A stretch of 64,000 nucleotides of DNA, taken from the NCBI RefSeq assembly GCF_003334815.1, contig NZ_QOWO01000001.1. One strand, 5' to 3'. How positions within the stretch are numbered: the first letter of the stretch is position 1; each line of letters opens with the position of its first letter. The position numbers and the translations under genes are program-made. The stretch comes from Escherichia coli. GTDB taxonomy: Bacteria > Pseudomonadota > Gammaproteobacteria > Enterobacterales > Enterobacteriaceae. Below the pieces are notes generated by a model that was not told where the DNA came from, searched no databases, and saw nothing but the letters and a program-made list of their open reading frames with translations. Shown here piece by piece: positions 44,486 to 44,680 of this stretch.

Positions 44486-44680
44486 TTATTCTACCTTTTC
44501 GGCTGTCTCTTCTCTCGTACTGTTTAAGTATTTGTTCCGCGCTTCAAGCAGTGCGTCTCTGTCCTGGCGAAACGCCCGACAATAACGTTTCAAATGCAGG
44601 AAATAACCCACCACAACCAGAGCAATCAATACAATCCAGTACCAGGCGATAAACATCCTTTTACCCTTAATATTTAACAA
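44486..44680 (-). CDS. Hypothetical small single-pass membrane protein (64 aa)
   Basis: One hydrophobic segment FIAWYWIVLIALVVVGYFL then a charged tail; between zupT and ribB. I recall a small annotated ORF here in E. coli but cannot confirm its name. Confidence 0.4.
   Translation of the reverse strand: MLNIKGKRMFIAWYWIVLIALVVVGYFLHLKRYCRAFRQDRDALLEARNKYLNSTREETAEKVE

Follow-up and report, generated by a model that had tools for sequence, protein, structure and literature searches.

The small minus-strand open reading frame (ORF) between zupT and ribB is Escherichia coli yqiD (b4756), a gene that is already annotated and experimentally confirmed and is not new. It is transcribed as an Hfq-associated RNA of about 320 nt, translated, and maintained by purifying selection in a limited set of Enterobacteriaceae. 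The first-pass annotation of the window, by which we mean the whole stretch of 64,000 nucleotides of E. coli DNA analyzed here, had read it as a conserved small protein with a single membrane pass; this reading is supported, with the membrane location itself a prediction. By analogy with characterized small membrane proteins, we think it somewhat probable that YqiD serves a larger membrane protein as a small accessory or regulatory subunit. The case also provides a positive control for the reading of sequence alone, in that a true small-protein gene was picked from raw sequence.

The reading frame is present at 44486..44680 (minus strand) exactly as first described, with 64 codons, a TTG start, and the translation MLNIKGKRMFIAWYWIVLIALVVVGYFLHLKRYCRAFRQDRDALLEARNKYLNSTREETAEKVE in the ORF list. 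In the ORF map of the window it is flanked by zupT (43655-44428, plus strand) and ribB (44918-45571, minus strand), and an FMN riboswitch was located by Rfam upstream of ribB at 45675-45823 (minus strand); a zinc transporter gene and a riboswitch-controlled gene do adjoin it, as had been claimed. Its product is 100% identical to the RefSeq entry “yqiD: protein YqiD” (WP_000469266.1), and the yqiD coding sequence of strain ER1709 (the same accession, 171 nt) maps to window positions 44486-44656. A megablast search with window positions 44300-45000 yielded matches in all 5,426 complete E. coli genomes, with “yqiD: protein YqiD” as the annotated feature; RefSeq gives the name in most of these genomes, which goes against the earlier suggestion that this is the kind of gene often missed in annotation. 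In MG1655, a 56-residue YqiD of identical sequence is encoded between zupT and ribB at 3183381-3183551 (VanOrsdel 2018, PMC6001520). Like its orthologue group, the window product falls within 56 to 60 residues, starts with MFIAWYW, and carries the KRYCRAFRQDRDALL core, and its gene follows ribB and converges with zupT. Two further uses of the name were set aside: the yqiD of Bacillus subtilis is a name collision, being an ispA homologue unrelated to the E. coli gene, and the “YqiD” that appears beside ElaB in a reviewer comment (PMC5525287) is probably a slip for YqjD.

The frame and the end at 44486 stand as first given, and the start moves eight codons downstream, to an ATG at 44656. The features of the coding region are as follows.

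44486..44656, minus strand: yqiD coding sequence, 56 codons plus TAA, product MFIAWYWIVLIALVVVGYFLHLKRYCRAFRQDRDALLEARNKYLNSTREETAEKVE, RefSeq WP_000469266.1
44664..44668, minus strand: Shine-Dalgarno-like AAGGG, 7 nt 5' of the yqiD ATG, read from the sequence
44678..44680, minus strand: TTG of the 64-codon ORF, which is not the start codon

The ATG corresponds to M9 of the 64-codon ORF and gives a protein of 56 residues. We assign the true start to it because every YqiD homologue has MFIAWYW as its N terminus, the AAGGG is placed 7 nt upstream, TAAGGGTAAAAGG directly before the ATG is kept in 26 loci, and the TTG is out of frame elsewhere, its spacing to the ATG differing by 1 nt in other Escherichia (L003-L005) and in Salmonella.

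Expression of yqiD is documented in several published data sets. The gene is among 36 small ORFs whose chromosomally SPA-tagged product was detected by immunoblot, and it was positive in ribosome profiling with tetracycline (VanOrsdel 2018, PMC6001520); ribosome profiling and a translational fusion were the two experimental checks that the first-pass annotation had named, and both favor a translated gene. Northern blots confirmed an Hfq-bound RNA of about 320 nt from the zupT-ribB spacer (Bilusic 2014, PMC4152368), which was less abundant in hfq and RNase III (rnc) mutants; the authors noted a putative 56-residue ORF and left it open whether the RNA, the peptide, or both are functional. In the genomic SELEX of the RpoS holoenzyme, a peak was found in the zupT-ribB spacer (Shimada 2017, PMC5493296); for want of a yqiD annotation at that time, it was classed as “downstream of both genes.” This peak is explained by the yqiD promoter and would fall near window position 44724 if MG1655 version 2 numbering is assumed. 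In enteroaggregative E. coli (EAEC) 042, a “DUF4051 family” ORF, orf3334, which is probably the yqiD orthologue, was upregulated in an aar mutant (PMC5570504), and a 2025 preprint lists yqiD among genes with isolate-dependent expression associated with cis noncoding variants. Literature searches for a functional study of YqiD and for fractionation or interaction data on it returned nothing.

yqiD has its own AT-rich promoter region and its own terminator, in keeping with a monocistronic gene. The elements around the gene are the following.

44856..44887, minus strand: intrinsic terminator of ribB, from the terminator scan
44761..44776, minus strand: palindrome TATGATCAAAATCATA, invariant, in the core-promoter region, with 6-4-6 geometry and a GATC, of the form TATGATC-N4-TCATA
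44774-44769, minus strand: candidate -10 element TATGAT inside the palindrome, from the promoter scan
44741..44746, minus strand: alternative candidate -10 element TATTAT, with A2 and T6 invariant across species (columns A156, T158, T160)
44707..44728, minus strand: candidate hairpin AAUAUAUCC-GAAAAA-GGAUAUGU, an inverted repeat that would form an RNA hairpin if this stretch is transcribed as 5' untranslated region
44428..44468, minus strand: intrinsic terminator of yqiD, a 13-bp stem (within 44468-44438) followed by the U-rich AUGUUGUUUU, from the terminator scan

Since the ribB terminator stands between ribB and yqiD, yqiD most likely lies outside the riboswitch-controlled ribB unit, and ribB is not adjacent to yqiD in ~18% of E. 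coli genomes. The spacer after this terminator and ahead of yqiD has a GC content of 25 to 35%. The yqiD terminator sits in the 57-nt gap to the stop codon of the convergent zupT. Either -10 candidate predicts a transcript of ~300 to 330 nt, which fits the published size, and a start near 44735-44762 with an end near 44430 is consistent with the Northern RNA (PMC4152368). Transcription would probably proceed from the AT-rich promoter that binds the sigma-S holoenzyme in vitro, with the invariant palindrome serving some regulator.

Upstream of yqiD, the alignment of 14 taxa shows no relatedness beyond about -125, after which all of them share TATGATCAAAATCATA. Counted from the ATG, the pattern [T/C]ATGATC-N4-TCAT sits at -116 to -119 in 26 loci (Escherichia, Citrobacter, Salmonella, and Intestinirhabdus) and at -76 in Enterobacter kpr-6, and it is absent from the Phytobacter/Kosakonia group. 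Relatives of the latter type (L029-L031, L035, and L036) share another conserved motif, CTACTTATAAAGTGGTA, about 70 to 100 nt upstream of the yqiD-like ATG, which points to another promoter or regulator there. Operators of the FNR/CRP type have the consensus TTGAT-N4-ATCAA. The palindrome shares their 5-4-5 geometry and TGAT...ATCA core and agrees with the consensus at 8 of 10 positions, but A and T are exchanged at its outer positions in every species (ATGAT...ATCAT), the discriminating T of FNR is missing, and it overlaps the -35/-10 region rather than being placed at -41.5. The consensus sites of Fur, Zur, NikR, ArgR, and HipB were rejected on misfits of half-site or spacing, and a text search of the literature for the palindrome returned unrelated eukaryotic papers only. 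A second ATGATC-N4-TCAT match upstream of zupT had pointed to an operator shared with yqiD; this was also rejected, as the element that the alignment shows to be conserved there is a different palindrome, TGATGA-N3-TCATCA. That element lies in the ygiD-zupT spacer at ~43585-43612, inside GATAAC...GTTAT and just upstream of a -35-like TTGACG for zupT; it is kept from Escherichia to Enterobacter kpr-6 and is degenerate in Phytobacter and Kosakonia.

The inverted repeat at 44707..44728 is present in both the minimum-free-energy and the centroid folds. In the alignment, 82.8% of its cells are paired, against 22 to 60% when the partners are slid, and compensatory double changes occur at two pairs (9 cells) between Escherichia and Citrobacter; the observed score was reached by 0 of 500 shuffles. 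The support from covariation is modest, and the repeat could be an RNA hairpin or a DNA operator. A weak helix occluding the ribosome-binding site and the ATG, proposed by RNAalifold at -3.65 kcal/mol, showed no covariation and was rejected as unsupported.

The YqiD family is small and confined to enterobacteria: when 1.84 billion protein cluster representatives were searched exhaustively with a profile, only 22 matched, all small enterobacterial proteins or fragments once the weak matches P0122 and P0123, to repeats in long proteins, had been set aside. With a word-indexed protein search, 108 relatives were recovered, none of them from outside Escherichia, Citrobacter, Salmonella, and unnamed metagenome reads; some are labeled “DUF4051 domain-containing protein.” The homologues so labeled in Citrobacter and Salmonella (NCBI, UniRef) are 67 to 80% identical and share the MFIAWYW...KRYCRAFRQDRDALL core; the label has no functional content. 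In a scan of 100,044 species, each represented by one genome, 30 yqiD loci were found with two peptide patterns that more divergent members could escape; the loci are distributed over Escherichia spp., many Citrobacter, subspecies of Salmonella enterica, Intestinirhabdus, and one Enterobacter, as well as Phytobacter and Kosakonia. An intact ORF of 56 to 70 codons with an ATG start is present in all 30, so that the conservation of the reading frame called for at the outset extends from Escherichia to Kosakonia. In every one of these loci zupT is convergent to yqiD, 10 to 60 nt apart, and ribB immediately precedes yqiD in about half, the others having intervening DNA or a contig end. The order ribB, yqiD-like gene, zupT (convergent), ygiD is retained even in the distant relatives P0113 and P0117. 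Another match, P0118 (125 residues), starts with the N-terminal ~70 residues of a ZupT homologue and ends in a YqiD-like part; as zupT and yqiD are convergent, this chimera is most likely an artifact of assembly or gene calling.

The NCBIfam search with YqiD returned no model (NF038143 reached 18.2 bits against a cutoff of 50), and the Pfam-A search gave no DUF4051 match and only weak ones, below a sensible threshold, to DUF2621 (20.0 bits over 50 of 139 model positions), DUF6526, and DUF4381. Membership in these four families was rejected; the matches span only the transmembrane segment and the charged helix and were treated as compositional. No PDB chain matched YqiD in a sequence search, and PADLOC gave no match.

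Selection on the protein is visible in the codons. Over codons 1 to 40, dN/dS against the window sequence is 0.03 to 0.07 for Citrobacter, Salmonella, and Intestinirhabdus and 0.13 to 0.2 for closer and more distant pairs, with dS at or near saturation in these comparisons; the dN/dS check proposed at first pass thus gives 0.03 to 0.2 in the core. Pooled over 28 sequences, the same codons have a pS of 0.648, a pN of 0.072, and a pN/pS of 0.11, whereas the C-terminal tail has a pooled pN/pS of 0.47 (21 species). Of the 40 core columns, 34 vary at the third codon position and 13 at the second. The annotated frame alone is open; each of the remaining five frames, read as a control, is interrupted by stops, and their pN/pS values run from 0.23 to 2.5. 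Since the core is so much more constrained than the tail and the other frames are interrupted, it is the annotated protein frame that is under constraint, most strongly in the transmembrane helix and the motif next to it. The idea that yqiD might be a chance ORF in an AT-rich spacer, giving no protein product, has nothing in its favor beyond the general frequency of short ORFs; it is refuted by the detected protein, the conserved open frame, and the frame-specific purifying selection, and we give it practically no weight.

The same values bear on whether the transcript acts mainly or additionally in trans as an Hfq-dependent regulatory RNA, of dual function and with the protein secondary. Enrichment in Hfq coimmunoprecipitation and the lower level without Hfq are hallmarks of canonical small RNAs according to Bilusic et al. 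(PMC4152368). Further points in its favor are the short transcript, the strong terminator hairpin with a U-rich tail, and folding that is better than that of shuffled versions (z = -4.6). Many ordinary mRNAs, on the other hand, also bind Hfq as targets of small RNAs. The conservation is moreover at the protein level (core pS of 0.65 against pN of 0.07), and since core synonymous sites are near saturation, the coding sequence holds no long conserved nucleotide stretch that could serve as a seed; nucleotide conservation inside it is no more than coding explains, and the conserved blocks lie upstream of the ATG. The yqiD RNA is like SgrS/SgrT and AzuCR/AzuC in combining a short Hfq-associated transcript with a small protein (PMC4152368), but unlike them in that no conserved nucleotide seed was found inside the coding sequence and conservation is at the protein level. 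We regard a mainly or additionally RNA-based role as unlikely, and the protein-level conservation argues that the peptide would matter whichever of the two readings holds.

The predicted protein divides into three parts, which bear out the hydrophobic N-terminal helix and the charged C-terminal tail described at first pass.

44597..44653, minus strand: predicted transmembrane helix FIAWYWIVLIALVVVGYFL, codons 2 to 20, mean Kyte-Doolittle hydropathy of 2.43 over 19 residues (residues 2 to 20 of the 56-residue form)
44546..44596, minus strand: juxtamembrane motif H-L-K-R-Y-C-R-A-F-R-Q-D-R-D-A-L-L, codons 21 to 37, from the alignments
44486..44536, minus strand: variable acidic/polar C-terminal tail, codons 41 to 56 plus the stop, with the tail pN/pS given above

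The helix has an aromatic belt, W5-Y6-W7, at its predicted outer end. No charge precedes it and 5 K/R follow within 14 residues, so that the positive-inside rule predicts a periplasmic N terminus and a cytoplasmic tail of ~35 residues; a single helix of at least about 19 residues with positive charges on one flank is also what characterizes small bitopic proteins. The 36 residues after the helix contain 9 K/R and 7 D/E. The invariant basic motif KRYCRAFRQDRDALL follows the helix and would lie on the cytoplasmic side. The residues that never vary in an alignment of 24 sequences are M1, I3, W5, R24, C26, A28, R30, D32, R33, D34, and A35. The main clade has His at position 21, where Phytobacter/Kosakonia have Cys, and position 26 is Cys in all 24. 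More distant relatives lose part of the invariant residues, and P0120 lacks the Cys. The length of the tail varies across the family, giving proteins of 56 to 70 or more residues. AlphaFold2, run with the alignment, models residues 3 to 55 as one continuous helix with a mean pLDDT of 73. YqiD thus splits into a constrained core, made of the transmembrane and juxtamembrane segments, and a free tail, and the invariant R24, C26, R30, and D32-D34 are targets for mutation.

Within E. coli, yqiD occurs in two forms. A second, deeply diverged haplotype is present in about 993 of the 5,426 complete genomes (~18%); its product, WP_001296421.1, annotated as “hypothetical protein,” is MFIAWYWIVLIVLLAGGYFLHLKRYCKAFRHDRDALLAARSKLDKRSDKE(L/V)FEKHQ. 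Between the haplotypes, nucleotide identity is 100% in the 5' half of zupT, 74 to 84% in the yqiD core, and 52 to 66% in its tail, and the core pN/pS between the two alleles is 0.16. In the second haplotype, for example in E. coli AF5 (NZ_OZ547033.1), a chaperone-usher fimbrial operon stands between yqiD and ribB. The ygiL-yqiG operon of the window, which is 67 to 75% identical to the AF5 fimbrial operon, lies beyond ubiK. The ribB-ubiK block and the fimbrial operon have thus swapped order between AF5 and the window (compared over 44429-46500). In 3 of the 5,426 complete genomes, S30 among them, codon 2 of yqiD is interrupted by an IS1 that takes away the start codon and the ribosome-binding site, so these strains at least can dispense with the gene. 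IS1 recurs in the AT-rich promoter and start region of yqiD; in Z22-2 the element stands ahead of the variant allele, at a distance of about 120 nt. Elsewhere in the window, Rfam identified several RNAs of known families, namely, a tandem pair of SIB RNA genes, the known type I antitoxins of Ibs, at 54520-54669 and 54895-55044 (minus strand), an ES173 small RNA match at 17626-17689 (plus strand), and three naRNA4 (REP-derived) matches at 729-805, 11775-11845, and 62964-63034.

In the role that we favor, that of an accessory or regulatory subunit, the N-terminal helix (residues 2 to 20) would insert into the inner membrane so that the N terminus faces the periplasm, and the remaining ~35 residues would form a cytoplasmic helix opening with KRYCRAFRQDRDALL. 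The helix and the juxtamembrane motif may bind a larger membrane protein and alter its activity or stability. As the invariant convergent neighbor, ZupT is the obvious candidate partner, the link being one of position; ribB, ubiK, and ygiD are equally syntenic, however, and vertical inheritance may suffice to explain the adjacency.

Such a partnership could take a more specific, metal-linked form. MntS acts on MntP and MgtS on MgtA and PitA, and by the same token a YqiD dimer might sense or buffer Zn(II) through His21 and Cys26 at the inner leaflet of the membrane and so tune ZupT. The convergent zupT in all 30 loci and in two more distant relatives, the Cys at position 26 in every aligned sequence, and the His or Cys at position 21, both of which are residues that can bind metal, are consistent with this. 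Against it, the synteny of the ribB-yqiD-zupT-ygiD block is explained by descent, convergent genes are not cotranscribed, the distant relatives P0113, P0116, and P0120 lack His or Cys at these positions, no Zur box was found, and zupT is described as constitutive (PMC8264917); we consider the Zn(II)-sensing dimer improbable. We hold as quite improbable the version in which YqiD would be a dedicated partner of ZupT or another metal transporter, its invariant juxtamembrane Cys/His-Arg-Asp motif sensing cytoplasmic metal and the palindrome acting as the operator, of which a variant would have the 320-nt Hfq-bound mRNA double as a regulatory RNA. If true, it would add a layer of posttranslational control to a zinc importer regarded as constitutive.

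A hydrophobic peptide of this size might also be a type I toxin that damages the membrane when expressed, since it is small, intergenic, and led by a hydrophobic helix, and genuine ibs/Sib loci occur in the same window. Tagged YqiD accumulates in normally growing cells (PMC6001520), though, and no Rfam antitoxin RNA was found at or opposite the locus (44400-44900), nor was a repeated or duplicated locus or, as stated above, a PADLOC match. The long conserved charged tail, cytoplasmic by prediction, and the strong purifying selection with fixed synteny, typical of a housekeeping accessory gene, also speak against a toxin, which we regard as highly improbable; together with the chance ORF, it is effectively excluded. 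For the study of YqiD function in general, the conserved promoter palindrome and the two diverged E. coli haplotypes are useful additions.

MgtS, AcrZ, MgrB, MntS, CydX, and KdpF are characterized small single-pass regulators of the E. coli inner membrane. YqiD resembles them in its size class, its single predicted transmembrane helix, its own small gene, and its enterobacteria-restricted conservation; it differs from them in having no sequence similarity to any of the six and in its unusually long and strongly conserved juxtamembrane motif, which is cytoplasmic by prediction.
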